Shown one piece after another: positions 16,404 to 59,806 of a stretch of 64,000 bases of DNA. Source of the DNA: Candidatus Zixiibacteriota bacterium (GTDB lineage: Bacteria; Zixibacteria; MSB-5A5; UBA10806; 4484-95). A program made the position numbers and the translations under genes. The stretch covers positions 148,880 to 212,879 of the forward strand of contig JBBIRK010000006.1 in NCBI GenBank assembly GCA_037441845.1, given 5' to 3'. The first letter of the stretch is position 1. The number at the start of each line of letters is the position of its first letter. Under the pieces are notes generated by a model. It was not told where the DNA came from, did no database searches, and was given only the letters and a program-made list of their open reading frames with translations.

Positions 16404-16437
16404 CACCGCGTCCTCCTTCAAACGACCTCCGGCCGGC

Positions 16438-16470
16438 AATAAACGCAAAAGGGTCCGGCATGCCAGACCC
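16438..16470 (-). terminator. Stem-loop (GGGTCcGGCATGCCaGACCC) followed on the - strand by a T-rich tract (TTTTGCGTTTATT). Putative terminator or attenuator between dsrP and the CoADR-rhodanese gene.
   Basis: Inverted repeat at 16451-16470. The complement of AATAAACGCAAAA (16438-16450) supplies the U-tract for a - strand transcript. It lies in a 126-nt gap after the dsrP stop. Confidence 0.35.
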
Positions 16471-18864: not shown

Positions 18865-20475
18865 TTACCGTTCCTCCCCCGGTGAAAACGGAGTTCCCCG
18901 CAGATCGACCTCCCGCTTTTTTTCGCCTTTCATTACCAACGCATTGCCGACCAGCTCATGCACGCCGGCAACCTCGACACCCGGCACCCAATATTCGAGC
19001 AGCGGCGGTAGCGTTGCTTTATCGATAGCGCAAATACAAGCCAGCAGATTGACGCCGTGCTTTTCACTGACGAACTTCACAGCGTTGGCTCGCGGCAAGC
19101 CTCCCCGAAGCCGCATTTCGAGATTTTCGTCGGTGCCCAATCCCGATCCGGAACCGCAGCAGAAAGTTTGCTCTCTGATAGTGTTTTCCGGCATCTCGTG
19201 GAAACGATTGCAGACGTTTTTCAATATATACCGCGGTTCCTCGAGCAACCCCATCGCCCTTGAGGGATTGCACGAATCGTGAAATGTCACGTTCCAATGG
19301 TCGTTGCGGCTCGGATCAAGTTTCAACTTTCCGTGCTTAATCAGGTCGGCGGTGAATTCGCAAATATGCACCATCTTGGTCGATTTGGCGTTTTCGAATC
19401 TGGTTCCCGTAATCGGCGAAACCGGCGGCTCGAGAAAATCGGCCGGACCGTTTATGGTGTCCATATATTGGTGAAGCACCCGCCACATATGCCCGCATTC
19501 GCCTCCGATTATCCATTTCACTTTCAGGCGGCGCGCTTCGGCGTAGATTTTGTTGTTCAGCCTTTTCATCATCTCGGCTGAATGGAACAGGCCGAAATTG
19601 CCCCCTTCGGAGGCATAAGCGCTGAAAGTATAGCTCAATCCGATTTCGTGGAACAGCGCCAGATAACCCAAGAGCGTGTAATAATGAGGCGTGCCGAAAT
19701 AATCCGCCGACGGCACCACGAATAAGATGTCTTTACCTTTCTCGTTGATCGGAGCGTTCACTCGTATTCCGGTCAATTCCTCAAGTTCGTCGACCGCGAA
19801 TTCGATACTGTCTTTGAATCCGTGGGGTTGAATTCCGAGATGATTGCCGGTGCGGAAACAATTGGCCGCCGGAGTGGTAATCCAGTCGATCCCGCAGCCG
19901 ATCAGATTCAACAGCTCGCGCACCATCATCGTAATTTCCGCCGTGTCTATTCCATAAGGGCAAAAAACCGAGCAGCGGCGGCACTCGGTGCATTGATAGA
20001 AATAATAGAACCACTCCTTCACGACTTGCTCGGTCAATTCTCTGGCGCCGGCCATCCTGCCCATTATCTTGCCCGCCAAAGTGAAATCGTTGCGATAAAC
20101 CGAACGGAGCAGCTCGGCGCGCAAGACCGGCATGTTTTTGGGATCGCCCGAACCGATGAAAAAATGACACTTGTCGGCGCAAGCTCCGCAGCGCACGCAT
20201 ATATCCATAAAAATTTTCAACGAACGGTATCGGTTCAGACGTTCTCGCAGCCCGTTCAAAATGATTTCTTTCCAATTTTCCGGCAACTTCCAGTCGGCGT
20301 CGGTCGGTTGCCATTTGCGGACATGGGGCAAGCCGAGATATTCAGCGCGCTCGGGAACCGCCGCATAATTGTATGTTCCGTGGCGGAATTCGACCGCCGG
20401 ATCCATCCAGCTTTTTTTCGGAGGATTATAATCTATGCGCCCGAGCTCTTCGGGTTTAGGTGTCTTTTCAGCCAT
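18865..20475 (-). CDS. dsrK: DsrK, HdrD-like catalytic subunit (4Fe-4S plus CCG domains).
   Basis: Motifs: CVRCGACADKCH, CTECRRCSVFCPYG, HDSCNPSRAMG, TFCCGSGSGLG. The start was moved to the ATG at 20475 (MAEKTPKPEELG). That ATG overlaps the dsrM TGA stop as ATGA. Confidence 0.85.
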   Translation of the reverse strand: MAEKTPKPEELGRIDYNPPKKSWMDPAVEFRHGTYNYAAVPERAEYLGLPHVRKWQPTDADWKLPENWKEIILNGLRERLNRYRSLKIFMDICVRCGACADKCHFFIGSGDPKNMPVLRAELLRSVYRNDFTLAGKIMGRMAGARELTEQVVKEWFYYFYQCTECRRCSVFCPYGIDTAEITMMVRELLNLIGCGIDWITTPAANCFRTGNHLGIQPHGFKDSIEFAVDELEELTGIRVNAPINEKGKDILFVVPSADYFGTPHYYTLLGYLALFHEIGLSYTFSAYASEGGNFGLFHSAEMMKRLNNKIYAEARRLKVKWIIGGECGHMWRVLHQYMDTINGPADFLEPPVSPITGTRFENAKSTKMVHICEFTADLIKHGKLKLDPSRNDHWNVTFHDSCNPSRAMGLLEEPRYILKNVCNRFHEMPENTIREQTFCCGSGSGLGTDENLEMRLRGGLPRANAVKFVSEKHGVNLLACICAIDKATLPPLLEYWVPGVEVAGVHELVGNALVMKGEKKREVDLRGTPFSPGEER

Positions 20476-21470
20476 CACTTGTCCTTTTCCATAGGCAATC
20501 CAGAGGCCTTGATCTTGTCGGCGAATTCTTCTTCCCACTCCTCGTAAGTGTGCACTTTAACCGGATAATCCCACGGATTGATATGCCGCCGGCTTCGGCT
20601 GTCATTGGGCATATTGCGCGTAGGGGATAAGAATACTCCGCCCATATGCATCAGTTTGCCATAAGGGAAATACGCCACCAATACACAAACCAAAAACAGG
20701 TGCAAGTAAAATAAAACTCCCAACCCGTCCGGCACGACCGGATTGAAACTGACAAGCCCCATCGCCAACTCTTTGACCGCCACGATATCGGTCTTGAAAA
20801 AATACCTCATCAACACTCCGGTCACCGCGATCGATCCGATCAGAAGCAAGGGAAAATAATCCGCGAAAAGGGAAAAATACCGCAGTTGAGCCGAAAACAA
20901 CCGCCGCAAAAACAAAAAAGTCAATGCCGCCAGCAGCGTGATATTAGTGATATATATAATCGGCACCCCGATCTGGAAAAAGCCGTCGATACTTTGCAAC
21001 AGTTTGACGAATCCCGGCACGGGCTCGGCGAAATAACGGTAATGACGCAGAAAGACGATTAAAAACGACCAATGAAAAACGAGTCCGCCCAACCATAACC
21101 ACTTGTTGGCGCTGTAGGTCAATTTCGGTCCCGTCCTCAATTCGGCTTTGGTGTTCCGAAACAGCGAACGGAACAGCAGCACTTCGAGCGCCATGCGGAC
21201 TATTACTCCCAACTTGGAACTCGGGTTGTCGATTTTATTCGATTTTATCCAGGGAAGGGAGGTCTGCTGGCCGCAAGTGGTTGTGATTTTGAACGGCACC
21301 GGCGATTTAGACCAGCCGATCACCCGATAGACCACACCGGCAAAAAACGCCGCAATCGCCGCATAAGGGATTACCACCCCGAACAGTGATTGCAATCGCA
21401 GCATTCCCGACCCGATCAAAGCAATCGCTATCAAACCACCGGCCGCCAGAAAAGATACGAAGGCATTCAT
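20475..21470 (-). CDS. dsrM: DsrM, NarI-family dihaem cytochrome b membrane subunit.
   Basis: 331 aa, 5-6 TM helices, C-terminal YFPYGKLMHMGGVF, and a position upstream of dsrK. Confidence 0.8.
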   Translation of the reverse strand: MNAFVSFLAAGGLIAIALIGSGMLRLQSLFGVVIPYAAIAAFFAGVVYRVIGWSKSPVPFKITTTCGQQTSLPWIKSNKIDNPSSKLGVIVRMALEVLLFRSLFRNTKAELRTGPKLTYSANKWLWLGGLVFHWSFLIVFLRHYRYFAEPVPGFVKLLQSIDGFFQIGVPIIYITNITLLAALTFLFLRRLFSAQLRYFSLFADYFPLLLIGSIAVTGVLMRYFFKTDIVAVKELAMGLVSFNPVVPDGLGVLFYLHLFLVCVLVAYFPYGKLMHMGGVFLSPTRNMPNDSRSRRHINPWDYPVKVHTYEEWEEEFADKIKASGLPMEKDK

Positions 21471-22138: not shown

Positions 22139-22456
22139 TTAAACGCAGCCGGTCGGTTTCGCCAATCCGGCGACCTTGCAGGCTCCCTTGGCCGGTCCCG
22201 AGGGAAACAGCTCGTAGATCTCTTTCAGCGAAAATCCGGTTTCCTTGCAGAGCTTGCGGATCATCGGCGCGATACCGAATTTCTGATAATAATCGCGCAG
22301 ATAGTTGACTACCTTCCAGTGCTTTTCCGTCATTTCGGTTACGCCCTCGGCACCGGCGAGCGCTCTGGCTACATCCTCATTCCATTTATCCATTTCCTGG
22401 ATAAACCCGTCCTCATCAACCTCGATTCTCACGTTTCCTGCTTCGAAAATCGGCAT
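22139..22456 (-). CDS. dsrC: DsrC, with the conserved C-terminal swinging arm carrying both cysteines.
   Basis: 105 aa ending ...FPSGPAKGACKVAGLAKPTGCV. This is the GAC(K)...PTGCV DsrC signature. Confidence 0.9.
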   Translation of the reverse strand: MPIFEAGNVRIEVDEDGFIQEMDKWNEDVARALAGAEGVTEMTEKHWKVVNYLRDYYQKFGIAPMIRKLCKETGFSLKEIYELFPSGPAKGACKVAGLAKPTGCV

Positions 22457-22497: not shown

Positions 22498-24180
22498 CTA
22501 ATGCATCTCGATATATCCACAGGGACAATTCTCCGCGCATTTCTTGCAGCCGTTGCAAAACTCGAGTTTGAATTTATACTCCTGCCCCCGCACTAAAGGC
22601 TTAACGATCGCGTTGTCCTGGCATAGACTCCAGCAGGTTCCGCAATCGAAACAAAGGCCGCAGCTCATGCAACGCTTCGATTCTGCCACCGCCTCCTCGA
22701 ACGTCAACGTGCTGGTGATCTCGGCGTCGAGGCTTTTCAGCCTTTCTTCAACCGGAAGCTGTTTCGCTTTGACCGGGTGCGCCTCGGGGAAATAAGTATG
22801 AGCCATCTTGTCCAACGTTATCAAATCCAGCTTTTCCGGCACGCGGATCGGGTTATTCGAAATCAATTCGTCGATCGCCAGCGCCGCCATCCGCCCGTGA
22901 TAAATCGCGGTGATCACCAACCCCAGTTCGATATCGTCTCCGCCGGAATAAGTCCCAGCGTCCCTGGTCTGACCCTTTTCGTCAACCTTGATCCAATCTT
23001 TTCCATCTATCAATTTGTCCAACCCGGTGAAATCCGGCTCCTGGCTTATCGCCGCTATAAGAGTGGAAAATTTCAAGTCGAACGTGTCACCTTCGATTGG
23101 AACCGGCCGCCTTCTTCCCGATGAGTCAGGTTCACCCAATTGCATCCTCTGACATTTGGCGCCGACCGCTTTGCCGTTTTCCTGATAAATTTCTATCGGA
23201 GCCGCAAGATATTCGATAGCCACGCCCTCTTCCTCGGCGCCATCGATTTCCTCGCAGATCGCCGGCATCTCCGCTCTGGTGCGGCGGTATAAAATCGTGG
23301 CTTTGGCGCCCAATCTGCGGGCTACACGAGCGGCATCTATAGCGGTGTCACCGCCGCCGATCACCACCACATGATCTCCGACATCGAGCTTTTCGCCGGT
23401 GTTTATCCGGTGAAGAAACGCCGTTCCCGTAAAAACGTTGGGGGCATCTTCACCCTTAATCCGAAGTTTAATCCCTTGATGCGCTCCGATCCCCACGAAA
23501 ATCGCCTTGTAATCTTGTTTCAGCTTATCGTAGGCGATATCTTTGCCGACGATGGTGTTCGTTTTGAGTTCCACTCCCAGGTCGACTATCCGCTGTATTT
23601 CGGCGTCGAGAACATGCTGCGGCAGGCGATAGTCCGGTATCCCGTAGCGAAGCATACCGCCCGTCTTCGGAAACGCCTCGAATACCGTAACCGGATAACC
23701 GCGGCGGGCAAGCTGGTAAGCGCAAGACATACCGGCGGGGCCGGAACCGATTACCGCTATTTTCTCGGCCTTTTTCGTTTCGCTGATCAGTCTGGGCTTG
23801 AGGTTTTTGGATAATCCATAGTCGCCTATAAATCTCTCGATATTATTGATCCCGACCGCGCCTTCTTTATCCTTGCGATTACACTGGCTTTCGCATGGGT
23901 GTGGGCAAACCCGGCCGCATACCGAAGGGAACGGGGTCGTTTCGAGAAATATGTAGAACGCTTTCGCCAGGGTTTCATCGTAACTCTGACCGAAATCCTC
24001 GGTTCTCGAAATCGCCGTGATCATCTCCCGAATTCTGTTGTGATTCGGACAGGTATTTATGCATGGCGGCATCTTTTCCACCAGCTTGGGGCGCAATGGG
24101 GAGGTCTCTACGCTCGAGCCCCCCGACGATCGCGAAAGACTTCGCAAACCGGTTTTGGTTTTTTTGACTATTTTAGCCAT
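22498..24180 (-). CDS. dsrL: DsrL-like NAD(P)H:acceptor oxidoreductase. It is GltD-like with an extra C-terminal 2x[4Fe-4S] ferredoxin domain, probably the short DsrL-2 type.
   Basis: GltD-like N-terminal Cys cluster (CINTCPNH...CGRVCPHPCESQC). FAD site VIGSGPAGMSCAYQLARRG. NAD(P) site VVVIGGGDTAIDAARVARRLG. C-terminal ferredoxin CMSCGLCFDCGTCWSLCQ...CNGCKKCAENCPCG, which GltD, NfnB and SudA lack. It sits between dsrN and dsrC. Confidence 0.65.
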   Translation of the reverse strand: MAKIVKKTKTGLRSLSRSSGGSSVETSPLRPKLVEKMPPCINTCPNHNRIREMITAISRTEDFGQSYDETLAKAFYIFLETTPFPSVCGRVCPHPCESQCNRKDKEGAVGINNIERFIGDYGLSKNLKPRLISETKKAEKIAVIGSGPAGMSCAYQLARRGYPVTVFEAFPKTGGMLRYGIPDYRLPQHVLDAEIQRIVDLGVELKTNTIVGKDIAYDKLKQDYKAIFVGIGAHQGIKLRIKGEDAPNVFTGTAFLHRINTGEKLDVGDHVVVIGGGDTAIDAARVARRLGAKATILYRRTRAEMPAICEEIDGAEEEGVAIEYLAAPIEIYQENGKAVGAKCQRMQLGEPDSSGRRRPVPIEGDTFDLKFSTLIAAISQEPDFTGLDKLIDGKDWIKVDEKGQTRDAGTYSGGDDIELGLVITAIYHGRMAALAIDELISNNPIRVPEKLDLITLDKMAHTYFPEAHPVKAKQLPVEERLKSLDAEITSTLTFEEAVAESKRCMSCGLCFDCGTCWSLCQDNAIVKPLVRGQEYKFKLEFCNGCKKCAENCPCGYIEMH

Positions 24181-25647: not shown

Positions 25648-25675
25648 CGAGGAAATCCTCCGGAACGATCCGGAT

Positions 25676-25921
25676 TTAATCGTTGGCCGCGCCTTCTTTA
25701 TGCGGCAATTCGATAAAACTGCCGCCGAAATAAGTGTAAACGCAGCGGCCGGAATTCATCAGCTCTTTAATGGCTTCTTTGCAGAGCTGTTTGTCGACCT
25801 CGTCGCCGTAGAGCTCGATCATGGCCTTGGTCAGATCGGTCGCTTTCAGCTTCTTTTGACCGGTCGATTCCTTGACCAATTTGTACATCGCATCGGCGAT
25901 TTCACTTACGGTTTTAGCCAC
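25676..25921 (-). CDS. dsrD: DsrD, small winged-helix protein of reductive dsr operons.
   Basis: 81 aa, Lys-rich. Its C-terminal ...SGRCVYTYFGGSFIELPHKEG resembles the DsrD ...EYWSSGSTTMYGLKG end. It is positioned immediately after dsrB. Confidence 0.7.
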   Translation of the reverse strand: MAKTVSEIADAMYKLVKESTGQKKLKATDLTKAMIELYGDEVDKQLCKEAIKELMNSGRCVYTYFGGSFIELPHKEGAAND

Positions 25922-28621: not shown

Positions 28622-30859
28622 CTACATGCCTTTATATGGATTAGGCCCGATCTTGTCAATCTCCTCGAGAAATCCGTCGAAAATCTCCGGGATTTTCCGA
28701 TAGTCGCTTATAGCCAACTCATGCAGCCTGACCCGTTCCTCCTCCAGCACCAACTGCTTCAATTTCTCCCGTACGTTCGACATCCGCGTTGCCGCCAGCT
28801 CGCTTCCCCTGATAAAGTGGCATTGGTAATCATCGCCCTTTTTGCAACCGATAAGCAGCACGCCGTCGAATCCGCTGGCCAAAGCATCGCTGACCCAGAC
28901 GGTATTCATCGAACCCAGGCATCGCAAAGGGATTAATCGAATCATCGCATTGTAACGCAATCGCATCAATCCGGCCATATCCACCGATGGCAAAGCGTCG
29001 TTTTCGCAGATAAAAGCCAAAATCCGCGGTTTTTCCTCGAACTCGTCGGGAATGTGGATCGATTTGATCATCTGCGACATCATGTTCACGTTGTAGTTCT
29101 TGAACGAGATTATCCGCTCGGGACAGGCGCCCATGCAGACGCCGCAGCGCCGGCAACGGAATGGATTGGGAAGCGGTGTTCCTTTTTCGTCCTCGTCGAG
29201 AGTCCCAAAAGGGCACTCCTCAGTGCACCGCTTGCACTGGGTGCATCGCTGCATGAAAAATTCCGGAAAACTTGCATCTCCCGACCGCGGATGCACGGCC
29301 AGCCCCCGGGATACCGCCTCGACCGCCTGAATCGCTTTCAACGCCGCCCCGTAGGCATCATCGCGGCTCTCGGCGAATCCCATCGGGGCCCGCACCGCCC
29401 CGCAGGCGTAGATCGCCGTCCGCCTGGTTTCATAGGGAAAACAGATATAATGGGAATCGGGAAAGCCGTATTTGAGGGTGGGGAGATCTGTTCCTTGACG
29501 GTAAGTCAAATTGATTATTTTCGCCCCCTTCTCGGCGCCTGCCGCTTCCTTTTTGCCATCGGCGGTGGTGGCTGTTTGATCGCCTGCGGTATCGCCGACG
29601 GATTCCTCCTCGAGCGTCTCGACTTTCGTGGCTGGAACCATCCCCGTGGCCAGGACTACCAAATCCGCCTTGATAGAAATGCTTTCCCCCAAGAGCGTGT
29701 CAGTCGCTGTAACCAGTATTTTCCCCGAATTATCTTTGGCGACTTCCTTGATTTCGCCTTTGGTGAAAAATACGGCGTCATCGTCCTGAACCTGCGCATA
29801 AAACAGCTCTTGCTGGGCAGGAGTCCGCATATCCTTGTAAATAATATAGATTTTTGTGTCGGGATAGCTTCGCCTTATATACAGGGCCTGTTTCAAGGTG
29901 ACCAAACAACAAACCGACGAACAATAGGGGAGATGGTTCTCGTCGCGTGAGCCGGCGCACTGAATGAAAACCACGCTTTCAGGTTTCTTGCCGTCCGATG
30001 GCCGTTTTATTCCCCCGTTGCCCATCATCCGCTCGATATCGACGTTGGTCACGACGTCCGGGGAAATTCCGTAACCCAGATGCGTCAGTTTGCCGGGGTC
30101 GTAGGCGCGCCAGCCGGCCGCCAAAATTATCGCTCCGACCTCGATCTGTTTGCCGCCGGATTCGTTTTTCAAAGTAACGGCGAATTTGCCGGGCTGCCCG
30201 CTGGTTTTTTCGACGACGGTTGACGTGTAAACTTGAATGTTTTTGTTTGAATTCACCTTTTGCAGAAGGTCTTGCAGCCCGGTATCATCGAGGTTCGAAT
30301 AAGGGGAAATACGAGGGTATGATTTCGTAGTTTTCGCCGCCCAGCCGCCGAGCTCTTTTTCTTTTTCGATCAGCACCGCCTGATAACCGGCCTCGGCCAC
30401 GGCCAGAGCCGCCTGTAAACCGCTCATTCCGCCGCCGATCACCATGATCGATTTGCTGGTCGGTTCGATATACGGCTCGGGCGGTTCCGAATTCTGCAGC
30501 CTGGCTATTCCCATTCTGATATAATCCTCGGCCAGCATCTGCGTATCTTCGTCGTTGGGTGCATGAGACCAGGCTACCTGTTCGCGCAAACTGATTCTAT
30601 CGGTTAAGACATCCTTACCGAAATCAAACAGTTCCGTAAATACGCGGCCCGAACAGGCGGCGATCGCCACCCGGTTGAGATTCTCGGCCTTGATATCGTC
30701 CTTTATCGATTCGACCGTTTCTTTGGCGCACAGAACGGCGTGCGATTTGCAAACGGCGGCTTTTCCACCCTTGGCCGCCTCAGCGACGAGTTTTTCGATA
30801 TCGATTGCTTTTTCGATATCACAGCCACGGCAAATATAAACTCCAATTTTCGTGTCCAT
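28622..30859 (-). CDS. qmoB: QmoB, HdrA-like flavoprotein with a C-terminal MvhD-like domain.
   Basis: 745 aa. FAD site IMVIGGGMSGLQAALAVAEAG. Several 4Fe-4S Cys motifs. C-terminal MvhD-like ILAFICENDALPSV...LIGCKKGDDYQCHF. Confidence 0.8.
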   Translation of the reverse strand: MDTKIGVYICRGCDIEKAIDIEKLVAEAAKGGKAAVCKSHAVLCAKETVESIKDDIKAENLNRVAIAACSGRVFTELFDFGKDVLTDRISLREQVAWSHAPNDEDTQMLAEDYIRMGIARLQNSEPPEPYIEPTSKSIMVIGGGMSGLQAALAVAEAGYQAVLIEKEKELGGWAAKTTKSYPRISPYSNLDDTGLQDLLQKVNSNKNIQVYTSTVVEKTSGQPGKFAVTLKNESGGKQIEVGAIILAAGWRAYDPGKLTHLGYGISPDVVTNVDIERMMGNGGIKRPSDGKKPESVVFIQCAGSRDENHLPYCSSVCCLVTLKQALYIRRSYPDTKIYIIYKDMRTPAQQELFYAQVQDDDAVFFTKGEIKEVAKDNSGKILVTATDTLLGESISIKADLVVLATGMVPATKVETLEEESVGDTAGDQTATTADGKKEAAGAEKGAKIINLTYRQGTDLPTLKYGFPDSHYICFPYETRRTAIYACGAVRAPMGFAESRDDAYGAALKAIQAVEAVSRGLAVHPRSGDASFPEFFMQRCTQCKRCTEECPFGTLDEDEKGTPLPNPFRCRRCGVCMGACPERIISFKNYNVNMMSQMIKSIHIPDEFEEKPRILAFICENDALPSVDMAGLMRLRYNAMIRLIPLRCLGSMNTVWVSDALASGFDGVLLIGCKKGDDYQCHFIRGSELAATRMSNVREKLKQLVLEEERVRLHELAISDYRKIPEIFDGFLEEIDKIGPNPYKGM

Positions 30860-30860
30860 C

Positions 30861-32156
30861 TTAATTCCTCCCCGCAGTCACATTTATCGCTTTGAGCGCC
30901 GCTCCGGTGGCATCTCTTACCGAATCGGCTACGTCCGCCGGCCTCAAAGCCGTCCCGGCGCCGATTATCCCCGACTTTTGCTGGGGCACGAAAAATCCAT
31001 ACGGGTCGATTTGCAGATTAAGCGCCGGTGCATCTGCGGCGGTATTAGGAACCATGCCGACCGCCAACACGGCCATCTCGACCTCGTAATCGCAGGTACT
31101 GCCGGTTAGTGTGTCTTCTGCCGTCAGCACCAGATTTCCGTTGGCATCGTTGCGGGTGATTTTGCCCACCTTGCCGCGGTGAAAATGCAATTTCGGATCC
31201 TGTTTCGCCTTGGAGTAGAAATCCTCAAGACGTCCCGGAGATCTTATATCTATGTAAAAGATATGAATATCCGCTTCCGGATACCGGGCTCTTACGTACG
31301 ATGCCTGTTTCATCGAGGCCAAGCAGCAGACGGCCGAACAATAGGGGAGATGATTCTCATCGCGGGAACCGGCGCATTGCACGAAACCGATGCTCGAAAT
31401 CTCCTTGCCGTCCGATGGCTTTACGATTTTACCGCCGTAGGGACCGTTTTCCGAGGCAATTCTTTCCATCATCACGTTGGTGATGACATCGGGATATTTG
31501 CCGAATCCGAGATTGTCCAGCCGTTTGGCGTCATATGGCCTCCAGCCGGTCGCCCAAACTATCGCTTTGGCATTGACCGTTATCTGAATCGGCCGCATGT
31601 CGAAATCGATCGCGCCGTATTCGCATACTTCGGCGCATTTCCTCACTCGGGGATCATTGACATAATTGCCGTCGATAACATACCTGAACGGATAAGCCAT
31701 CAAGTGCGGCAGATAAATCGCCTTGGTTTGATCGAGGCCGTAATTGAAAGTGTTGGGAATGCTTACTTCGCAGGCCTCGGCGCACTTGCCGCAGGCGGTG
31801 CATTTTTCATTAATATAGCGTGGATTTATTTTGATCGACGCCTTGTACGAGCCCGGTGCACCCTCGACCGATTGAATCTCCGTCAATGTCAGGACCTTGA
31901 TGTAGTTGCTGTTTTTGATCCTTTTCAGATTGATCTCCAATCCGCAGGTGGGGGGGCACATTTTCGGAAAGTACTGATTGGTGGCGGCAACCCGACCGCC
32001 CAGCGAGGGCTGCGATTCGATCAACAGCGCGTGATGAAACGTCTCCGCCAACTCGATCGCCGCGGTGATCCCCGCAATGCCGCCCCCGACTATCAACGCG
32101 TCGGTGTTGATTGTTGAGCCTGATTTTAGTTGATTTTCATGGATAATTTGGGTCAT
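30861..32156 (-). CDS. qmoA: QmoA, HdrA-like FAD/FeS flavoprotein.
   Basis: 431 aa. FAD site ALIVGGGIAGITAAIELAE. Ferredoxin Cys motif CTACGKCAEAC. It lies directly upstream of qmoB, 1 nt apart. Confidence 0.8.
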   Translation of the reverse strand: MTQIIHENQLKSGSTINTDALIVGGGIAGITAAIELAETFHHALLIESQPSLGGRVAATNQYFPKMCPPTCGLEINLKRIKNSNYIKVLTLTEIQSVEGAPGSYKASIKINPRYINEKCTACGKCAEACEVSIPNTFNYGLDQTKAIYLPHLMAYPFRYVIDGNYVNDPRVRKCAEVCEYGAIDFDMRPIQITVNAKAIVWATGWRPYDAKRLDNLGFGKYPDVITNVMMERIASENGPYGGKIVKPSDGKEISSIGFVQCAGSRDENHLPYCSAVCCLASMKQASYVRARYPEADIHIFYIDIRSPGRLEDFYSKAKQDPKLHFHRGKVGKITRNDANGNLVLTAEDTLTGSTCDYEVEMAVLAVGMVPNTAADAPALNLQIDPYGFFVPQQKSGIIGAGTALRPADVADSVRDATGAALKAINVTAGRN

Positions 32157-36569: not shown

Positions 36570-36839
36570 ATGATGACGAACGATAGCAAATTGAATTGCC
36601 CGCACTGCGGAAAATCGTTGAACAAATGGATGCCGCCCATTGAATCATCTTGGGGTCAAAACCCCCAGTACGTATGTTTCAACGACGAATGCCCTTATTA
36701 TGTCCGCGGCTGGGAGTGGATGAAGAATCAATTTCAACAACATGCCTCTTACCGTCACCGCTATAATCCGGCCAACGGGGAGGAGGGGCCGCTGCCCGTC
36801 TGGTCGCCCGAGGCATTGAAAGACGGAATCATCAAATAA
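36570..36839 (+). CDS. Small zinc-ribbon-like hypothetical protein.
   Basis: CPHCGKS...[10 protein letters not shown] gives two CxxC pairs. The protein is 89 aa. A TTGACT/TATATT promoter-like pair lies about 50 nt upstream. Confidence 0.35.
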
Positions 36840-36850
36840 ATGGATAGAAC

Positions 36851-37663
36851 ATGGAAGAAATCGAAAAACTGAAAAAAACGATACTCGCCGAGTATCCGAG
36901 ATTGAATCGCGCAAACGAGTTTTCTTTCAAATGCCATCCCGGGGTCAGCTGTTTCAACGTTTGCTGCGCCGATGTCAATATCTTTCTGACCCCTTACGAT
37001 ATCCTGAGGTTGAAACATAATTTGGGCATCTCCTCCGAAAAGTTCCTTTCGGACTATACGATCTCTCCTTTCGACGAAAAGCTGAAATATCCTATCGTGA
37101 TGTTGAAAATGGAGGATGACGAACGCAAGAGCTGTCCCTTCGTCGGCCCGGATGGCTGCCGAGTATATGCCGATCGACCCTGGGCCTGCCGCATGTATCC
37201 TTTGGGTCTTGCCTCGCCGAAAGAAAACAGCGGAATAGCGGACGATGAGTTTTATTTCTTATTGCAGGAGGATATCTGTCGGGGATTCGAGGAAAATCGC
37301 CGTTTAAGCGTGGCTGAATGGATCGACGAACAGGGAATCGCCGAATACGACGAGATGGGTAAATATCATAAAGAGCTTACCCTTCATGATTTTTTCCAAA
37401 AAGAAGGAAACAACCTCACTCCGGCCAAAATAGAAATGTTTTTCCTGACTTGCTACAATCTCGACCAATTCCGGGAATTCGTTTTCGGCAGCAGTTTTCT
37501 GGAAAAGTTCGATATCGACACGGAGACCCAAACCACCATCAAAGACAATGACGTCGAGCTGCTGAAATTCGGATACCGTTGGCTGAAATTCGCTCTATTC
37601 GGCGAAAAAACCATGAAAATAAAAGATGAAATAATTTCAAAGATAAAGTCGGGGAATTCATGA
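36851..37663 (+). CDS. YkgJ/UPF0153-family putative Fe-S or zinc-binding protein.
   Basis: CHPGVSCFNVCCAD and CPFVGPDGCRVYADRPWACRMYP match the YkgJ CxxxCC...C...YxxRPxxCRxYP pattern. Confidence 0.55.
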   Translation: MEEIEKLKKTILAEYPRLNRANEFSFKCHPGVSCFNVCCADVNIFLTPYDILRLKHNLGISSEKFLSDYTISPFDEKLKYPIVMLKMEDDERKSCPFVGPDGCRVYADRPWACRMYPLGLASPKENSGIADDEFYFLLQEDICRGFEENRRLSVAEWIDEQGIAEYDEMGKYHKELTLHDFFQKEGNNLTPAKIEMFFLTCYNLDQFREFVFGSSFLEKFDIDTETQTTIKDNDVELLKFGYRWLKFALFGEKTMKIKDEIISKIKSGNS

Positions 37664-37711: not shown

Positions 37712-38389
37712 CTATCTGACCCGCAATCCCGCTATTTTCACCGCACCTCTATGATAACCGTCGGGGAACAACCTTTCCATATCCGCCAAATCGATCTTAT
37801 TATCCTTACACGTTTCATAAATCGTCGGCACGGTTTTATTTTCGGCGTATTTCTGCCTTAAGTAGGTTATCACTTTCCAATGTTCCTTGGTGAGAGGGAC
37901 TTTCATCTCATAAGCGCGGTTGACCGCGAACACCTCGTCCCAATCTTTCGGGTTGACCAAAAATCCCCGGGAATCGATCCGATAAGTTTTGGAATCGTAT
38001 TCCGATTCGAAACGTTTGTAGTTTTCTTTCAGCCAGAAATGTTGAATATAGGCTTCCCGATAAGTGATGCCGGCCAGCCTGCAGGCTCCGCGCAAATAAC
38101 CGGTGGGAAATAATTGCTGCAGTTCCCCCAGACCGAGATTGTTTTTTTTGCAGGCGACATATACCAGCGGGCAGCTGTTCATCGTGGCGAATGAATTCCG
38201 GATAAAGTGGATCACTTTCCAATGGCTGTCCGTCAAACCGACCGTGATTTTAACCGCCGGCGCAAGGGCTCTGGCGAAATCCTCATCCCATTTGGAGGGG
38301 TCGATCAGATAACCTTGCGCATCGATCGGATACCTCTTCGACTTGAAATAAAGATATTTGGGTTTGGCCGATTTCTTTCGAACGCTCAT
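37712..38389 (-). CDS. Tandem DsrC/TusE-like fusion (two DsrC-family domains, both lacking the C-terminal catalytic Cys arm).
   Basis: Domain 1 reads ...WDEDFARALAPAV...HWKVIHFIRNSF...LFPTGYLRGACRLAGI. Domain 2 reads ...WDEVFAVNRAYEM...HWKVITYLRQKY...LFPDGYHRGAVKIAGLRVR. Compare the window's own DsrC, ...HWKVVNYLRDYY...LFPSGPAKGACKVAGLAKPTGCV. Confidence 0.65.
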   Translation of the reverse strand: MSVRKKSAKPKYLYFKSKRYPIDAQGYLIDPSKWDEDFARALAPAVKITVGLTDSHWKVIHFIRNSFATMNSCPLVYVACKKNNLGLGELQQLFPTGYLRGACRLAGITYREAYIQHFWLKENYKRFESEYDSKTYRIDSRGFLVNPKDWDEVFAVNRAYEMKVPLTKEHWKVITYLRQKYAENKTVPTIYETCKDNKIDLADMERLFPDGYHRGAVKIAGLRVR

Positions 38390-38483: not shown

Positions 38484-38921
38484 TCAAGCGTAGGGATACA
38501 TCCCCTTCTTGATCTGCTCGAGATTTTTCAAAATCTCGCTGTGCTTTCTTTCGTCGATCAATAGGTAATCCAGAAGATATTCCTGAACCAGCATCTTTTT
38601 ACCGCGCAGTGCGGATAGGGCTTCCTCGGCGAGCTTGATCGTCTGGCTTTCGAGTTCGATATGATGCGCGATCATGCTCCATACTTTGGCGACTTCGTCG
38701 GGAGAAAGCGCCACCGCCTTGCCCTCAAGCGTCGAGGCGATGAACTCCTGCACTCGGTAATGCATCTGCGAATCCCGCTGGATAATTTCCATGATTAACC
38801 TGACGATCGGGTTGTCCGTTTTTTCGATAATGTTGCCGGTCGAGGCTATCGAGGCGTTCTCGATTTTCTGCCAGCGTTTCATGTTGTCAAGAATTTGCTG
38901 TTGCACTTCTTTGGTTGACAT
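38484..38921 (-). CDS. Hypothetical helical protein, possibly a ferritin-like four-helix bundle. The start is set at the internal ATG with an AAGGAAAGGA RBS.
   Basis: Recurrent E...H/ExxH pairs (MHYRVQE, IAHHIELE, ERKHSE). The track ORF, extended to 39062, would overlap the upstream gene by 90 nt. Confidence 0.35.
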   Translation of the reverse strand: MSTKEVQQQILDNMKRWQKIENASIASTGNIIEKTDNPIVRLIMEIIQRDSQMHYRVQEFIASTLEGKAVALSPDEVAKVWSMIAHHIELESQTIKLAEEALSALRGKKMLVQEYLLDYLLIDERKHSEILKNLEQIKKGMYPYA

Positions 38922-38971: not shown

Positions 38972-40588
38972 TTAATGCCATTCCCAGGTGAGGAACGGCT
39001 CCTTTATATCGGTCATGGCGTTGACTATCAATTCCACCAGCCCGCCGTATAAGATGTTGCACTTTTCGAACACCCCGTATGCGGAGAACAACTCACGAAT
39101 CTGTCCTTTGCAATTTGAGCACGGCGCACAAACGTATTTTTTATGCTCGGGGCCGATTATATCCTGGAACACATCCAAAACTTGCTTCAACTTCGCCCTT
39201 CCCGCAACGCTGTGCCGCCAGTCCGGGAAATTGGAATTGGGCATGATCGCAAATCCGCTGCCGCCGCCGCAGCAATAATTATATACTCCATGCGGCGTCA
39301 TCTCCCTGAAATTGGGGCAAATCGCCCGCAGTATCTCTCTTTGCGGCTCCACGATTCCCATCAAGCGGACCACGTTGCAGGGGTCGTGTAAGGTGACGTG
39401 AAAATCGGCGTTCCGCTGCGGATCGAGTTTCAATTTGCCGCTCAAAACGATATCTCTCAACAAGGTCAGCGAGCTTTCGCGGGGGATATTCAAATCGCCG
39501 GCGAATACTCTGTCGGCGACCACCGTCATCGCCTTGTGCGAATGGCCGCATTCACCTATCACGATCTTTTTGACTCCCAGCTTCTTGGCCACTTGGGCGT
39601 GCCGGATCGCCACTCTCGAAAACTGCACATCGTCATACCAGACGCCGTAATTGACACCGTCGTAACCCAAAAGATCGCTCGACAAAGTGTAGCTTATACC
39701 GGCGGCCTCCAAAATTATGGCGAAAGCCTCCGGATTCTCCGGCCAGGCGAGAAGTTCGCCGGCATTGTGGATTAAAAGCAGCTCCGCTCCCTCTTTATCT
39801 ATCGGCCACTTGAAATCCATGCCGGTTTTTTCGCGAATCTCGTCTTCCATGAATTCGATATTGTCTTTGAACGCCACTGGCGTCATGCCGGTCGATGATC
39901 CTTTGTCGAGATGCTGAACCGTTCCCAACTCGTGTACCTGCTTCGGCGCTATCCCCATCTCCTGGCTGAATATTTTGCGCAGTTCATGAGTAACCAAGCC
40001 GTTGTCGGCGCCTATCGGGCAGGTCTGGGCGCAACGGCGACATAGCGTGCAGCGATACGACAGCTCGATCAATCGAGCGATCATTTCCCACGATGCCTCG
40101 ATATAATCTCCGCTCAATCGGGAAAGAAATGCACCGCCTTGTTTGACATACCGCTTGTAAAGCTGCCTTAAAATCTGCGCCCTGAATGTGGGTCTATAGA
40201 TTTCTATCTCTCCGGATTGTTGAAATATCGGGCAGGCCTGCGAACAGGTCTGACAGCGCGCGCAATACTCGACTGTCAAAAGCAGCGGCTGTAAAAACGT
40301 CCAGTTGTTCTCTTTGGAAAACAGCTTGGACAAACCCGAAAGGAATTTCTCTACCAGCTGCCGTTTCTCGTTTTCGTCTTTCGGTTTGGGCAGCAACACA
40401 GCCGACACGCCATCCAGACCGCATTCGTATTTGCTCATCTGGTCTGCGGATAATTTTTTGATCTTCGGCTCGAGCTCGAGCTTGTTATAGGGGGGAGGAA
40501 GCGGGATGAATCCGGCCGGATCGAGTTCGACCAATTGCTCCACCGGACTATTCATGTCCTTCGGTGTGATATTCCTGTTGTCTTTCAT
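38972..40588 (-). CDS. DsrK/HdrD-like CCG-domain iron-sulfur protein (second paralogue).
   Basis: CARCQTCSQACPIF, CTLCRRCAQTCPIG, HDPCNVVRLMG and YNYCCGGGSGFAI are CCG motifs. The start was moved to the ATG at 40588, which overlaps the upstream stop as ATGA. Confidence 0.75.
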   Translation of the reverse strand: MKDNRNITPKDMNSPVEQLVELDPAGFIPLPPPYNKLELEPKIKKLSADQMSKYECGLDGVSAVLLPKPKDENEKRQLVEKFLSGLSKLFSKENNWTFLQPLLLTVEYCARCQTCSQACPIFQQSGEIEIYRPTFRAQILRQLYKRYVKQGGAFLSRLSGDYIEASWEMIARLIELSYRCTLCRRCAQTCPIGADNGLVTHELRKIFSQEMGIAPKQVHELGTVQHLDKGSSTGMTPVAFKDNIEFMEDEIREKTGMDFKWPIDKEGAELLLIHNAGELLAWPENPEAFAIILEAAGISYTLSSDLLGYDGVNYGVWYDDVQFSRVAIRHAQVAKKLGVKKIVIGECGHSHKAMTVVADRVFAGDLNIPRESSLTLLRDIVLSGKLKLDPQRNADFHVTLHDPCNVVRLMGIVEPQREILRAICPNFREMTPHGVYNYCCGGGSGFAIMPNSNFPDWRHSVAGRAKLKQVLDVFQDIIGPEHKKYVCAPCSNCKGQIRELFSAYGVFEKCNILYGGLVELIVNAMTDIKEPFLTWEWH

Positions 40589-41526
40589 TTCCCGTTGTCC
40601 TTTTTGTCCTGACCTGCGGCTTCGGTGGCCGCCTGCGCCCAGGTCTTGTTTTGCCCTATATGCGGGGCCGCCCAAGTCAATTTATAGCCGAGCGCCCGGG
40701 TGACCTCCGCTTCTATTTTACTGCCTCTAATATTAGGTTCGTCTTCCCATCTGACGGTGTGATAAGTGAAATACTTGCCGATAAAGTGAGTCATGTGGGT
40801 GAACGGCAGATAAACGAAAAACAAGGTCGTCAATATCAGGTGAAGTTGGGTGATCGTCGGCAAAGAGGGCGTGGCTTTCAAAGTAATCATGCCGCCGGCG
40901 AAAGAACGCAGATGCCCCAGCGATGAATCGGCCGTAAGCCACGACAAAAATCCGGTGACGAAAATCGCCAATAAAAGCAGCAAGTTGAAATAATCCGCTC
41001 TTACCGAAAATTTCCTCAGCTCCGCTCGAAAGATGCGACTTAAAAACAATCCGAACGCGCCGATCGCACCCAATACCCAGCCTGCCACCCCCGTAATGAT
41101 CGTGAAACCGTTAAGCAACCTTCCCCAGGTGCTTTCCGATGCGCCGGAAATCTCGATTCCCATGGTCTGCAGGACCCCTCCGATAAGCAACAAAAAGATC
41201 GTAGCCGTCAGCAAATAAAGACCGAAATGAAACGGAAACGAAAAATACCAGAGCTTGCGATTATTGCGATACAGCGATTGAATCGCCAAAATCTCGCGCC
41301 CCATTTCCGCTATTTCGCTTCCCACGGCGATCTGACGGGGCTTGGTCCACCAGTTTATCTCCTCGAAATACGAACCGCCGTAATGTTCCTTGCCCTTTTC
41401 GTGGGGAATAGGATAGAGCTCCCATCTCACGTGCAAAGGCATTCTGGCGATCCGGATCGCTCTAATAAGACATCCTACCACCAAAACAATCACCGCAAAG
41501 TAGAACACGAATTGTAACCAATTCAT
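40585..41526 (-). CDS. DsrM/NarI-family dihaem cytochrome b membrane subunit (paralogue).
   Basis: 313 aa with 5-6 TM helices, and VYLPFTHMTHFIGKYFTYH at the C-terminus. It is translationally coupled to the HdrD-like gene. Confidence 0.7.
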   Translation of the reverse strand: MNWLQFVFYFAVIVLVVGCLIRAIRIARMPLHVRWELYPIPHEKGKEHYGGSYFEEINWWTKPRQIAVGSEIAEMGREILAIQSLYRNNRKLWYFSFPFHFGLYLLTATIFLLLIGGVLQTMGIEISGASESTWGRLLNGFTIITGVAGWVLGAIGAFGLFLSRIFRAELRKFSVRADYFNLLLLLAIFVTGFLSWLTADSSLGHLRSFAGGMITLKATPSLPTITQLHLILTTLFFVYLPFTHMTHFIGKYFTYHTVRWEDEPNIRGSKIEAEVTRALGYKLTWAAPHIGQNKTWAQAATEAAGQDKKDNGK

Positions 41527-58727: not shown

Positions 58728-59087
58728 GTGCACGAACTGGGAATAGCGGAATCGATCCTCGACACGATCCGCCTAAAAAGCAAAGAGCTGAACGGGGCCT
58801 CCATAAAATCGGTAGGCCTCAGGATCGGCGCTCTTTCGAATATCGTCGATGATGCCCTGCATTTTGCTTTCACGGTGATCGCCAAAGACACCGAATTCGC
58901 CTATGTCGAACTCGAAATCGAGCGTTGTCCGGTGCAGATCGAATGCCTCGATTGCGGCAGGCGTTCAGCGGTCGCCGATTTGCATTTCAGGTGCGACAAA
59001 TGCGGTTCCGGCAGAGTGGAAGTAATTCAAGGGTACGAATTGGAGATATCTCATCTGGAGATCGAATCCAATAGCGCCGAAAAGTGA
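58728..59087 (+). CDS. hypA: Hydrogenase nickel-insertion zinc-finger protein HypA.
   Basis: MHELGIAESIL at the N-terminus, then CLDCGRR...CDKCGS. Confidence 0.8.
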   Translation: MHELGIAESILDTIRLKSKELNGASIKSVGLRIGALSNIVDDALHFAFTVIAKDTEFAYVELEIERCPVQIECLDCGRRSAVADLHFRCDKCGSGRVEVIQGYELEISHLEIESNSAEK

Positions 59088-59137
59088 TCAAAAAACATTC
59101 ACTCAGGATATTTACTTTGCCATAAAGGAAAAGACCC

Positions 59138-59806
59138 ATGACCGAAAAGATCCCGGTAAATCAAAAACTCCTCTCGGAAAACGACCTGATCGCCGCCAGA
59201 CTCAGGGAACAATTCGATCTGAGGGGAATTGTGGCCCTTAATCTAATCAGTTCGCCGGGTTCCGGCAAGACCACCCTCCTTGAAAAAACCATCGGGGCGC
59301 TTAAAGATAAATACAGGTTGGCCCTGATAGCCGGCGACGTGCAGACCGAAAACGATGCAAACCGCCTTATCCGCGCCGGCGGCTCGATCGTCCGGCCGAT
59401 TGTAACCCGCGGCGCATGCCATCTCGATGCCCGCATGGTCGAGCGTGCCGTAGATAGCATCGACCTCGACGAAATCGACCTGCTTTTCATCGAAAACGTC
59501 GGTAATCTCGTTTGTCCCGCCGGATTCGACCTCGGCGAAAAAATGAAAGTGGTTTTAATGAGTACGACCGAGGGGCATGACAAACCGCTGAAATATCCCG
59601 CCGTTTTCCGAAGGGCCTCGGTTGTCGTCATCAATAAAATCGATCTTCTCGGCCTTTCCGATTTCGACCTCGATTGCGCCCGCCGCAATGCGCAGGAGGT
59701 AAATGCAGATCTAACGATTTTCGAAATCTCTTGCCGCGACGGCCGCGGTCTCGAAAAATGGTATGGCTGGCTGACGACGCTGATCGAAAGCGGACGCAAT
59801 CGCTGA
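59138..59806 (+). CDS. hypB: Hydrogenase accessory GTPase HypB.
   Basis: P-loop SSPGSGKTTLLEK, and ENVGNLVCPAGFDLGE. Confidence 0.8.
   Translation: MTEKIPVNQKLLSENDLIAARLREQFDLRGIVALNLISSPGSGKTTLLEKTIGALKDKYRLALIAGDVQTENDANRLIRAGGSIVRPIVTRGACHLDARMVERAVDSIDLDEIDLLFIENVGNLVCPAGFDLGEKMKVVLMSTTEGHDKPLKYPAVFRRASVVVINKIDLLGLSDFDLDCARRNAQEVNADLTIFEISCRDGRGLEKWYGWLTTLIESGRNR

Follow-up and report, generated by a model that had tools for sequence, protein, structure and literature searches.

Introduction

In dissimilatory sulfur metabolism, the central carrier protein is DsrC, whose chemistry requires a C-terminal arm. A preprint on the DsrMKJOP-DsrC complex reports that the arm cysteine CysA is essential, that its mutation abolishes growth and that, in the structure solved by cryo-electron microscopy, only CysA nears the DsrK active site, the second cysteine (CysB) being ~22 Å from the cluster (10.64898/2026.08.25.746951). 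An arm-less DsrC domain therefore cannot be the trisulfide carrier. DsrC has also been widely proposed as a partner of Hdr-type complexes (PMC5947623; PMC11636981). Here, we examine a gene located at positions 37712..38389 (minus strand) of a 64,000-nucleotide stretch from a Candidatus Zixiibacteriota bacterium (assembly GCA_037441845.1, contig JBBIRK010000006.1, positions 148,880 to 212,879), hereafter the window. This gene encodes two DsrC-family domains in tandem, neither of which has the arm.

Within the DsrC/TusE superfamily, the tandem protein is best regarded as a novel architectural variant that is uncharacterised and occurs in several phyla. It is a superfamily member by profile and fold, but it is neither a bona fide DsrC (by the arm and CysA) nor a TusE (by the equivalog score, the arm cysteine and the gene context). 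Judged from its sequence, it belongs to a subfamily of its own, which is widespread and uncharacterised and is marked by a GY(L/H)RG motif; in this subfamily, DsrC-fold domains are arranged head to tail, usually two and rarely three, with the reactive arm lost from every domain. A multi-phylum family that keeps and duplicates the fold while dropping the arm points to the reuse of the DsrC scaffold for another job.

Results

Two DsrC domains and no arm

The open reading frame starts with ATG and encodes 225 amino acids followed by a stop codon; Pfam PF04358 (DsrC) and TIGR03342 each match it in two stretches, with E=5.7e-45 for the whole protein against PF04358. Domain 1 (residues 13-109; 38063..38353, minus strand) covers positions 3-101 of the 107 of the PF04358 profile (E=1.2e-21) and domain 2 (residues 132-225; 37715..37996, minus strand) covers positions 2-101 (E=3.2e-22). 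Scanned singly, the halves obtain 77.6 and 79.4 bits against PF04358, for a gathering score of 24.9 bits, and 66.4 and 63.3 bits against TIGR03342, for a cutoff of 53.5 bits. An initial annotation, made from the letters of the window, had called the gene a tandem DsrC/TusE-domain fusion, and the profile search indeed recognises both halves.

As both PF04358 matches end at position 101 of 107, the C-terminal arm and its CysA are missing from both halves. The canonical ...PKPTGC[VA] ending is replaced after domain 1 by ...AGITYREAY, which leads into an inter-domain linker (residues 110-131; 37997..38062, minus strand) occupying the place of the arm, while domain 2 ends in ...AGLRVR, so that the protein terminates 3 residues past the AGL of this domain. 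The family core (WDE.FA, HWKVI..[IL]R and LFP.G...GA....AG) is present in both halves, the respective motifs of domains 1 and 2 being WDEDFA and WDEVFA, HWKVIHFIR and HWKVITYLR, and LFPTGYLRGACRLAGI and LFPDGYHRGAVKIAGL. The GP(A/G)KG motif of canonical proteins has become GY(L/H)RG. The halves share 42% identity with each other and 25-35% with canonical DsrC/TusE proteins, in an alignment comprising the DsrC of the window, Desulfovibrio vulgaris DsrC and Escherichia coli TusE.

Domain 1 contains Cys73 (codon 38171-38173), Cys80 (38150-38152) and the CysB-equivalent Cys103 (38081-38083), and domain 2 contains Cys194 (37808-37810), all encoded on the minus strand. When aligned with canonical DsrCs, the cysteine of the 'GAC' motif (Cys103) occurs in domain 1 only and is replaced by Val217 in domain 2. 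Translation and alignment thus bear out what the initial annotation had read from the sequence, namely the core motifs in both halves, the lack of a PTGCV-type terminal cysteine in either and an internal GAC cysteine confined to the first. Its deduction that such a protein could not carry the DsrAB-generated trisulfide agrees with the CysA-dependent mechanism (10.64898/2026.08.25.746951).

The structure prediction recommended at that stage was performed with AlphaFold2 using a 78-sequence alignment and yielded two confident DsrC folds, with a mean predicted local distance difference test score (pLDDT) of 83.8. The linker, at about residues 113-132, was modelled with low confidence (pLDDT <50 at residues 113-128, although this segment is drawn as a helix), and the predicted template modelling score (pTM) was only 0.50, leaving the mutual orientation of the domains undefined in the model. 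Foldseek searches against the PDB matched each domain to DsrC structures (3or1_C, 2xsj_C, 2v4j_C, 1sau and 1ji8; E values from 7e-7 to 4.5e-5), the top match being 3or1_C with a target-normalised template modelling (TM) score of 0.91 and a root-mean-square deviation of 0.9 Å; no two-domain DsrC architecture was found among the solved structures. Each half thus combines a profile score above the curated cutoff with a predicted DsrC fold, made up of a beta-hairpin at the N-terminus and a bundle of helices that includes a helix-turn-helix-like motif.

Conserved cysteines and charge

Conservation was assessed on the query and 120 relatives (121 proteins). Cys103 is conserved in 100% of them, Cys73 in 99%, Cys80 in 98% and Cys194 within the range of 98-100%, and about 104 of the 121 end 2-4 residues beyond the last AG[LIVM]. 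When 50%-identity representatives were aligned with a single hidden Markov model (HMM), the CysB position was nearly always Cys in non-terminal domains, even divergent ones, and V/I/L in terminal domains. This retention in non-terminal but not in terminal domains points to selection on that thiol specifically. Position 73 is likewise V/I/L in terminal domains, and Cys73 is variable outside the close family. The position shared by Cys80 and Cys194 is also Cys in ordinary DsrCs, such as that of the window and that of Archaeoglobus fulgidus, and is therefore probably a feature of the fold. The signature of the family is thus a CysB that is kept and an arm that is swapped for a linker and a further domain. 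The linker itself is cysteine-free, contains many aromatic residues and shows weak conservation, with a median identity to the query of 36% vs 60-62% for the domains.

The two halves also differ in charge. The median net charge of the helix-turn-helix (HTH)-like region is +4 in domain 1, which is basic, and -3 in domain 2, which is acidic; the halves are therefore not equivalent. The isoelectric point (pI) of the query, which has a Lys-rich N-terminus, is 9.5, while the family median is near neutral (6.5). Whole-protein pI or charge is not decisive for DNA binding, for which the charge of each domain is more informative.

Size and distribution of the family

A search of 5.8 billion proteins returned 1311 matches. 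The best 120 are nearly all two-domain proteins of 215-242 amino acids with 53-87% identity to the query, and those with a name come from Zixibacteria / GN15. An exhaustive search of 50%-identity representatives gave 39 clusters at E<=1e-30, mostly of 200-255 amino acids, together with three-domain proteins of 364-369 amino acids. Scanning metagenomes with the family alignment revealed at least 505 loci with the tandem architecture, far more than the 7 loci found when species-representative genomes were scanned with the single protein as query; the initial annotation had advised a search of other genomes without foreseeing how common the architecture would prove. The metagenome-assembled genomes (MAGs) recovered in the genome scan are labelled Ignavibacteria (87% identical and fully syntenic), Terriglobia, Desulfobacterales, Desulfococcus and Desulfobacteraceae, and a Syntrophobacter MAG also carries a tandem DsrC. 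Single-domain arm-less relatives with a GYxRGAC motif exist as well. A pseudogene or decaying duplicate is ruled out by the intact frame and by motifs and cysteines that are kept across phyla.

Several longer proteins were encountered. One of 359 amino acids (P0003, at 8001-9080 of locus L010) has three arm-less domains, the middle one resembling a recent internal duplication, and two others (P0124 and P0132; 364-369 amino acids) are higher-order repeat proteins. Distinct from these, a 541-amino-acid TusE-like protein (P0150) comprises about five repeats and carries a GP.K motif.

Public annotation of the family is generic, either 'TusE/DsrC/DsvC family sulfur relay protein' or 'tRNA 2-thiouridine synthesizing protein E'. 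The initial annotation was aware of no characterised tandem fusion, and neither searches of the full-text literature nor the papers on DiSCo and on Dsr evolution brought to light a DsrC described as tandem, fused or multi-domain. Because of the automatic 'TusE' and 'DsrC' labels, tandem genes may be counted in error as dsrC markers when metagenomes are surveyed. The DiSCo tool demands the C-terminal motif (PMC8477390), a requirement that correctly leaves them out.

Hydrogenase and Hdr genes next to tandem genes

Open reading frames were called in 95 loci, their products were clustered de novo and recurrent clusters were named via Pfam and NCBIfam. Contexts were counted after dereplication at 90% identity among loci with at least 8 kb of flank (n=33), a neighbour being a gene within 6 kb. 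[NiFe]-hydrogenase or Hyp genes lie near 11 of these 33 loci, Hdr-type genes near 9, and one or the other near 14. We roughly estimate at ~1% the chance proximity to one such cluster in a genome of 3-4 Mb. The genes that dominate these neighbourhoods encode a Vhu/Mvh-type [NiFe]-hydrogenase (large and small subunits, MvhD and HycI), HdrA, HdrB (with two CCG domains), HdrC, NuoE/F-like subunits, a second hydrogenase of the sulfhydrogenase type, and HypA, HypB, HypD, HypE and HypF. This Hdr / [NiFe]-hydrogenase / Hyp context is the most informative signal on the family.

In many of the hydrogenase- or Hdr-linked loci, the tandem gene immediately adjoins these genes and shares their strand. It occupies the edge of a sub-operon, behind hycI, 13 nt behind hypB or 28 nt behind hypE. 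One order runs HdrC, HdrB (2xCCG), HdrA, small subunit, large subunit, HycI, HypA and HypB, then the tandem gene (L020); it recurs with MvhD after HdrA and with two tandem genes at the end (L069). Elsewhere, MvhD-G-A-HycI precedes three tandem genes (L013), and a single tandem gene follows hypF-D and hypE (L035), hypD and hypE (L032) or hypE (L031). In L007, HdrA and HdrB/C-like genes stand beside the tandem gene.

Paralogous tandem genes often stand two or three in a row; arrays of this kind directly after MvhD-MvhG-MvhA-HycI are seen in Zixibacteria (L013, 8001-10140; L014; L021; L001; L069), with paralogue lengths of 231, 219 and 217 amino acids. In a Desulfobacterales MAG (L005, 8697-9326), inspection of the sequence suggests an adenosine 5'-phosphosulfate (APS) kinase (CysC)-like gene directly downstream of the tandem DsrC gene, with HdrC-like, [NiFe]-hydrogenase and HdrA genes beyond it.

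The sulfate-reduction island of the window

The window is a dissimilatory sulfate-reduction island. The minus strand carries, in order, qmoA, qmoB, dsrA, dsrB, a DsrD-like open reading frame, dsrN, dsrL, dsrC, an RsbRD_N-domain gene occupying the dsrT position of related clusters, dsrM, dsrK, dsrJ, dsrO and dsrP. The plus strand carries sat, aprB, aprA, an Ogr/Delta-type zinc-finger gene (36570-36839) and a CxxCxxCC-domain gene (36851-37663), the last two assigned by Pfam and convergent with the tandem gene. All Dsr membrane-complex subunits of the window exceed their NCBIfam equivalog cutoffs, the true DsrK (18865-20538, minus strand) with 740 bits. A canonical DsrC of 105 amino acids, with CysB, arm and CysA (...GACKVAGLAKPTGCV), is encoded at 22139..22456 (minus strand), as established by hmmsearch with the domain HMM, translation and neighbouring genes. 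Its gene lies between dsrL and dsrT-MKJOP in a dsrABDNL-dsrC-dsrTMKJOP cluster, and its product is the real trisulfide carrier of this genome. Since canonical DsrC, DsrAB, DsrMKJOP and QmoABC are all encoded in the window, the standard pathway does not require the tandem protein.

The tandem gene is the last of a minus-strand operon. This operon comprises a DsrM-like, NarI-type membrane cytochrome b (40585..41526; Pfam Nitrate_red_gam, 44.5 bits against NCBIfam DsrM for a cutoff of 300), a DsrK-like paralogue of the HdrD type (38972..40588; Pfam Fer4_8 and CCG, 325 bits for a DsrK cutoff of 400), a highly conserved protein of 145 amino acids (orf145; 38484..38921) and the tandem protein, all on the minus strand, with gaps of 50 nt before orf145 and 94 nt between orf145 and the tandem gene. 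No terminator-like site was found between the operon genes, the scans for terminators and promoters giving what is expected from shuffled sequence. The arrangement is syntenic in L003 and L015; between the window and L003, the tandem protein is 87% identical and its neighbours 95-98%.

Other features of the island deserve mention. The qmoC gene is found at 6234-7358 (plus strand; 432 bits for a cutoff of 300), ~21 kb from qmoA-qmoB (within 28622-32156, minus strand), which are directly upstream of dsrAB and not beside aprBA. With this bona fide QmoC, no subunit is missing for which the DsrM/K-like pair and the tandem DsrC would have to substitute, and such a replacement is ruled out. A third HdrD / TmcB / HmcF-like protein (2086-3825, minus strand; Fer4_8 and CCG) has a C-terminal response-regulator receiver domain and adjoins a PAS histidine kinase (637-2058), suggesting a CCG-type redox enzyme under the control of phosphorylation. 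A DsrL-type NAD(P)H oxidoreductase (22498-24180, minus strand) and the DsrD-like open reading frame (~25650-25860, minus strand) occur in one reductive-type dsr cluster; the dsrAB-D-N-L-C-T-MKJOP arrangement has been reported for 'Ca. Thermonerobacter' and peatland Acidobacteria. Directly downstream of dsrP lies a gene for a 577-amino-acid flavoprotein resembling coenzyme A-disulfide reductase (14715-16448, minus strand; 328 bits, below the equivalog cutoff), followed by the tetrapyrrole/siroheme genes hemA, the cysG N-terminal domain and hemC. Lastly, hypA and hypB homologues are present at 58728-59806 (plus strand), ~20 kb from the tandem gene, the encoded HypB being 64% identical to a Zixibacteria HypB, and no [NiFe]-hydrogenase structural gene was detected within the 64-kb window.

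The DsrM/K-like pair and orf145 in other genomes

Orthologues of the DsrK-like protein are 65-92% identical across Zixibacteria, Latescibacterota and Deltaproteobacteria. A complete Zixibacteria genome (L098) has sat, aprB, aprA and genes for the zinc-finger (ZnF), CxxCxxCC, NarI-like and DsrK-like proteins in this order on one strand, and a Latescibacterota locus (L096) has the last four without apr. Another Zixibacterium has a canonical armed DsrC gene ahead of the DsrM/K-like pair, and a deltaproteobacterial contig has the pair alone. From these contexts, the pair is taken as an APS-reductase-associated HdrED-like module, and the ZnF, CxxCxxCC, NarI-like and DsrK-like proteins together look like an uncharacterised HdrED-like membrane complex additional to QmoABC. 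In the lineage of the window, L003 and L015, the pair is inverted relative to sat-aprBA and is followed by orf145 and the tandem gene.

The product of orf145 has no Pfam or NCBIfam match, but 1566 homologues of ~70-75% identity and a fixed length of 145 amino acids were retrieved. In Zixibacteria, it forms part of Fur-family / orf145 / AhpC-Redoxin operons (L099, L100 and L101), followed in L099 by rubrerythrin, ferritin and 1-Cys peroxiredoxin genes. A homologue adjoins a tandem DsrC gene in an unrelated locus (L078), and the sub-threshold rubrerythrin-like match of that homologue (E=0.008) is the sole hint of a family. The orf145 gene probably encodes an unrecognised oxidative-stress protein. 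As for a tandem DsrC working in an oxidative-stress or peroxiredoxin system, this is ruled out as a general link: AhpC-like genes are near only 2 tandem loci, one being L002, and orf145 is near the tandem gene only in one lineage and in L078.

Discussion

Among the functions that could be assigned to the tandem protein, the one we tentatively prefer, as possible rather than probable, is that of a thiol-based protein assisting, as accessory or adaptor, the cytoplasmic electron-transfer modules of the Hdr type and those linked to [NiFe]-hydrogenase, a proposal drawn from gene context. The basic domain 1 would be the reactive or redox-sensing half, acting through a redox- or sulfur-active Cys103 and, in the close family, Cys73 and Cys80; the acidic domain 2, aliphatic at the positions of Cys73 and Cys103, would be the docking half with a distinct surface. 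The partners would be the neighbouring Hdr, DsrK-like or hydrogenase proteins. In the sulfate reducer of the window, the tandem gene and orf145 stand at the end of the operon for a putative APS-reductase-associated, quinol-oxidising DsrM/K-like (HdrED-like) pair.

Several observations weigh against this accessory role. The contexts of 19 of the 33 well-flanked loci are unrelated and have no common theme. The linkage of the tandem DsrC with the DsrM/K-like pair is confined to one lineage (the window, L003 and L015), orthologous pairs elsewhere having either no DsrC gene or a canonical armed one, and the tandem protein evolves faster than its operon neighbours. CysB is placed in a helix within a hydrophobic pocket, and its distance of ~22 Å from the cluster in the DsrK-DsrC structure means that Cys103 could not take part in chemistry under the canonical mode of docking. 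The model gives no relative orientation of the two domains (pTM 0.50, linker pLDDT <50).

A redox- or sulfur-responsive transcription factor comes next, although we consider it unlikely. The HTH-like motif contained in the DsrC fold would bind DNA, the tandem would mimic a dimer and the conserved cysteines would form a thiol switch. The basic HTH-like region of domain 1 and the Lys-rich, high-pI query suit such a function, but the acidic counterpart in domain 2 and the near-neutral pI of the family do not make a symmetric DNA-binding pseudo-dimer. The contexts are varied, histidine-kinase or cyclic-nucleotide-binding genes being sometimes near, and the tandem protein changes faster than the surrounding enzymes, as would fit a regulator; however, a regulator would not usually occur at the 3' ends of hydrogenase operons as arrays of 2-3 paralogues or in three-domain form, and Foldseek returned no significant DNA-binding-protein match (best such E>0.7). 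In Allochromatium vinosum, DsrC reportedly binds to DNA of dsr promoters, and a regulatory role is ascribed to the RspA relatives, which lack the arm. The regulator role put forward in the initial annotation found no positive evidence in the family, whose pI is near neutral, whose domain 2 is acidic in its HTH-like region and whose paralogue arrays lie at the ends of hydrogenase operons.

It is still more doubtful that the tandem protein is a dithiol/disulfide substrate, a 'bacterial heterodisulfide' in which Cys103 would pair with Cys73, Cys80 or Cys194 and which the CCG non-cubane clusters of HdrB or DsrK-like proteins would reduce, linking H2 or quinol oxidation to a protein disulfide. The proposal draws on the genes that adjoin the tandem gene, namely HdrCBA with an Mvh-type hydrogenase (L020, L069) and HdrA with HdrB/C-like genes (L007), on the DsrK-like gene of the window operon, whose product keeps its CCG domain, and on the four invariant cysteines of the close family. 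Moreover, DsrC is the usual candidate substrate of Hdr-Mvh complexes in non-methanogens (PMC5947623). Against it, no flexible arm is available to bring a cysteine into a buried active site, CysB is remote from the cluster in the DsrK complex (10.64898/2026.08.25.746951), no CCG protein is found near several hydrogenase-linked loci (L001, L013, L023) and Cys73 is not kept in divergent members. If docking resembles that on DsrK, a protein with no arm is not a direct substrate of a DsrK-type site, which weakens this proposal. Equally doubtful is its broader form, in which non-methanogen HdrABC-Mvh-type hydrogenase complexes and the Apr-linked DsrM/K-like complex would have the family as their dedicated protein thiol/disulfide (or persulfide) co-substrate; redox activity would be centred on the CysB-equivalent of the non-terminal domain, and docking would pass from the arm to the second domain. 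Were this true, the bacterial modules that bifurcate electrons or are linked to quinol would find their missing 'heterodisulfide' in the tandem family.

An accessory role in the maturation or protection of [NiFe]-hydrogenase, such as that of a chaperone for metal or sulfur working with HypA/B or HypC-F, seems improbable to a greater degree. The gene often lies 13-28 nt after hypB or hypE, or between hycI and hypA, conserved Cys and His residues (GYHRG, HW) are at hand and the window also encodes HypA and HypB, ~20 kb away; but the tandem gene is beside hyp genes neither in the window nor in most loci. Its position within hydrogenase clusters varies, so that it tracks the whole cluster rather than one particular Hyp gene, and no Hyp-dependent maturation step is known to need a DsrC/TusE-type protein. 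Least probable of all is a metal- or Fe-S-binding electron carrier that would serve hydrogenase and Hdr modules as a ferredoxin-like partner, a cluster between the two domains being coordinated by the cysteines of the close family, of which exactly four are near-invariant (three in domain 1 and one in domain 2). The gene does occur alongside redox enzymes rich in Fe-S clusters, but AlphaFold2 gives no confident interface (pTM 0.50), the Cys80/Cys194 position is probably a fold feature, Cys73 varies in divergent members and single-domain relatives exist.

The placement of the family in HdrABC, Mvh-type hydrogenase and Hyp clusters of Zixibacteria and Desulfobacterota bears on the substrate of bacterial Hdr-Mvh complexes. 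This hydrogenase/Hdr linkage and the rule that CysB is kept while the arm is lost should be of interest to specialists of sulfur metabolism and hydrogenases.

Comparison with known systems

Among the closest known systems is DsrC (PF04358, TIGR03342), whose fold is that of each half (TM score 0.91 and root-mean-square deviation 0.9 Å with respect to Desulfovibrio gigas DsrC) and whose HW, LFPxG and xGAxxxAG core is common to both. Domain 1 keeps the position of CysB, the second DsrC cysteine ~10 residues upstream of CysA, as Cys103, while domain 2 has Val217. The tandem protein differs from DsrC by having two domains per chain, no arm and no penultimate CysA (AGLPKPTGC[VA]), and GY(L/H)RG instead of GP(A/G)KG; its gene also stands outside the dsrAB cluster, where a separate canonical DsrC is encoded.

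TusE belongs to the same superfamily, the halves being 32% identical to the E. coli protein, and many family members are labelled 'TusE' in databases. However, the persulfide-carrying cysteine of the TusE arm is absent, the NF008562 equivalog gives 82.7 bits for a cutoff of 191 bits, and no tusBCD or mnmA gene was seen in the window neighbourhood or in the sampled loci. RspA-type proteins, the third branch of DsrC/TusE/RspA, likewise have no DsrC-specific AGLPKPTG-C motif (PMC8477390). Compared by description, they differ in that they are, as far as we found, presented as single-domain proteins, and in that domain 1 of the tandem protein keeps an invariant CysB.

Regarding gene partnership, the tandem loci resemble the methanogen HdrABC-MvhADG system and the proposed bacterial Hdr/Flx-DsrC system, with HdrC-HdrB-HdrA-MvhD-MvhG-MvhA-type genes beside a DsrC-family gene. 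In the methanogen system, the substrate is a small-molecule heterodisulfide, CoM-S-S-CoB, and in the bacterial proposal, it is an armed DsrC with two cysteines in the arm region, whereas the tandem protein is arm-less and its redox chemistry is putative.

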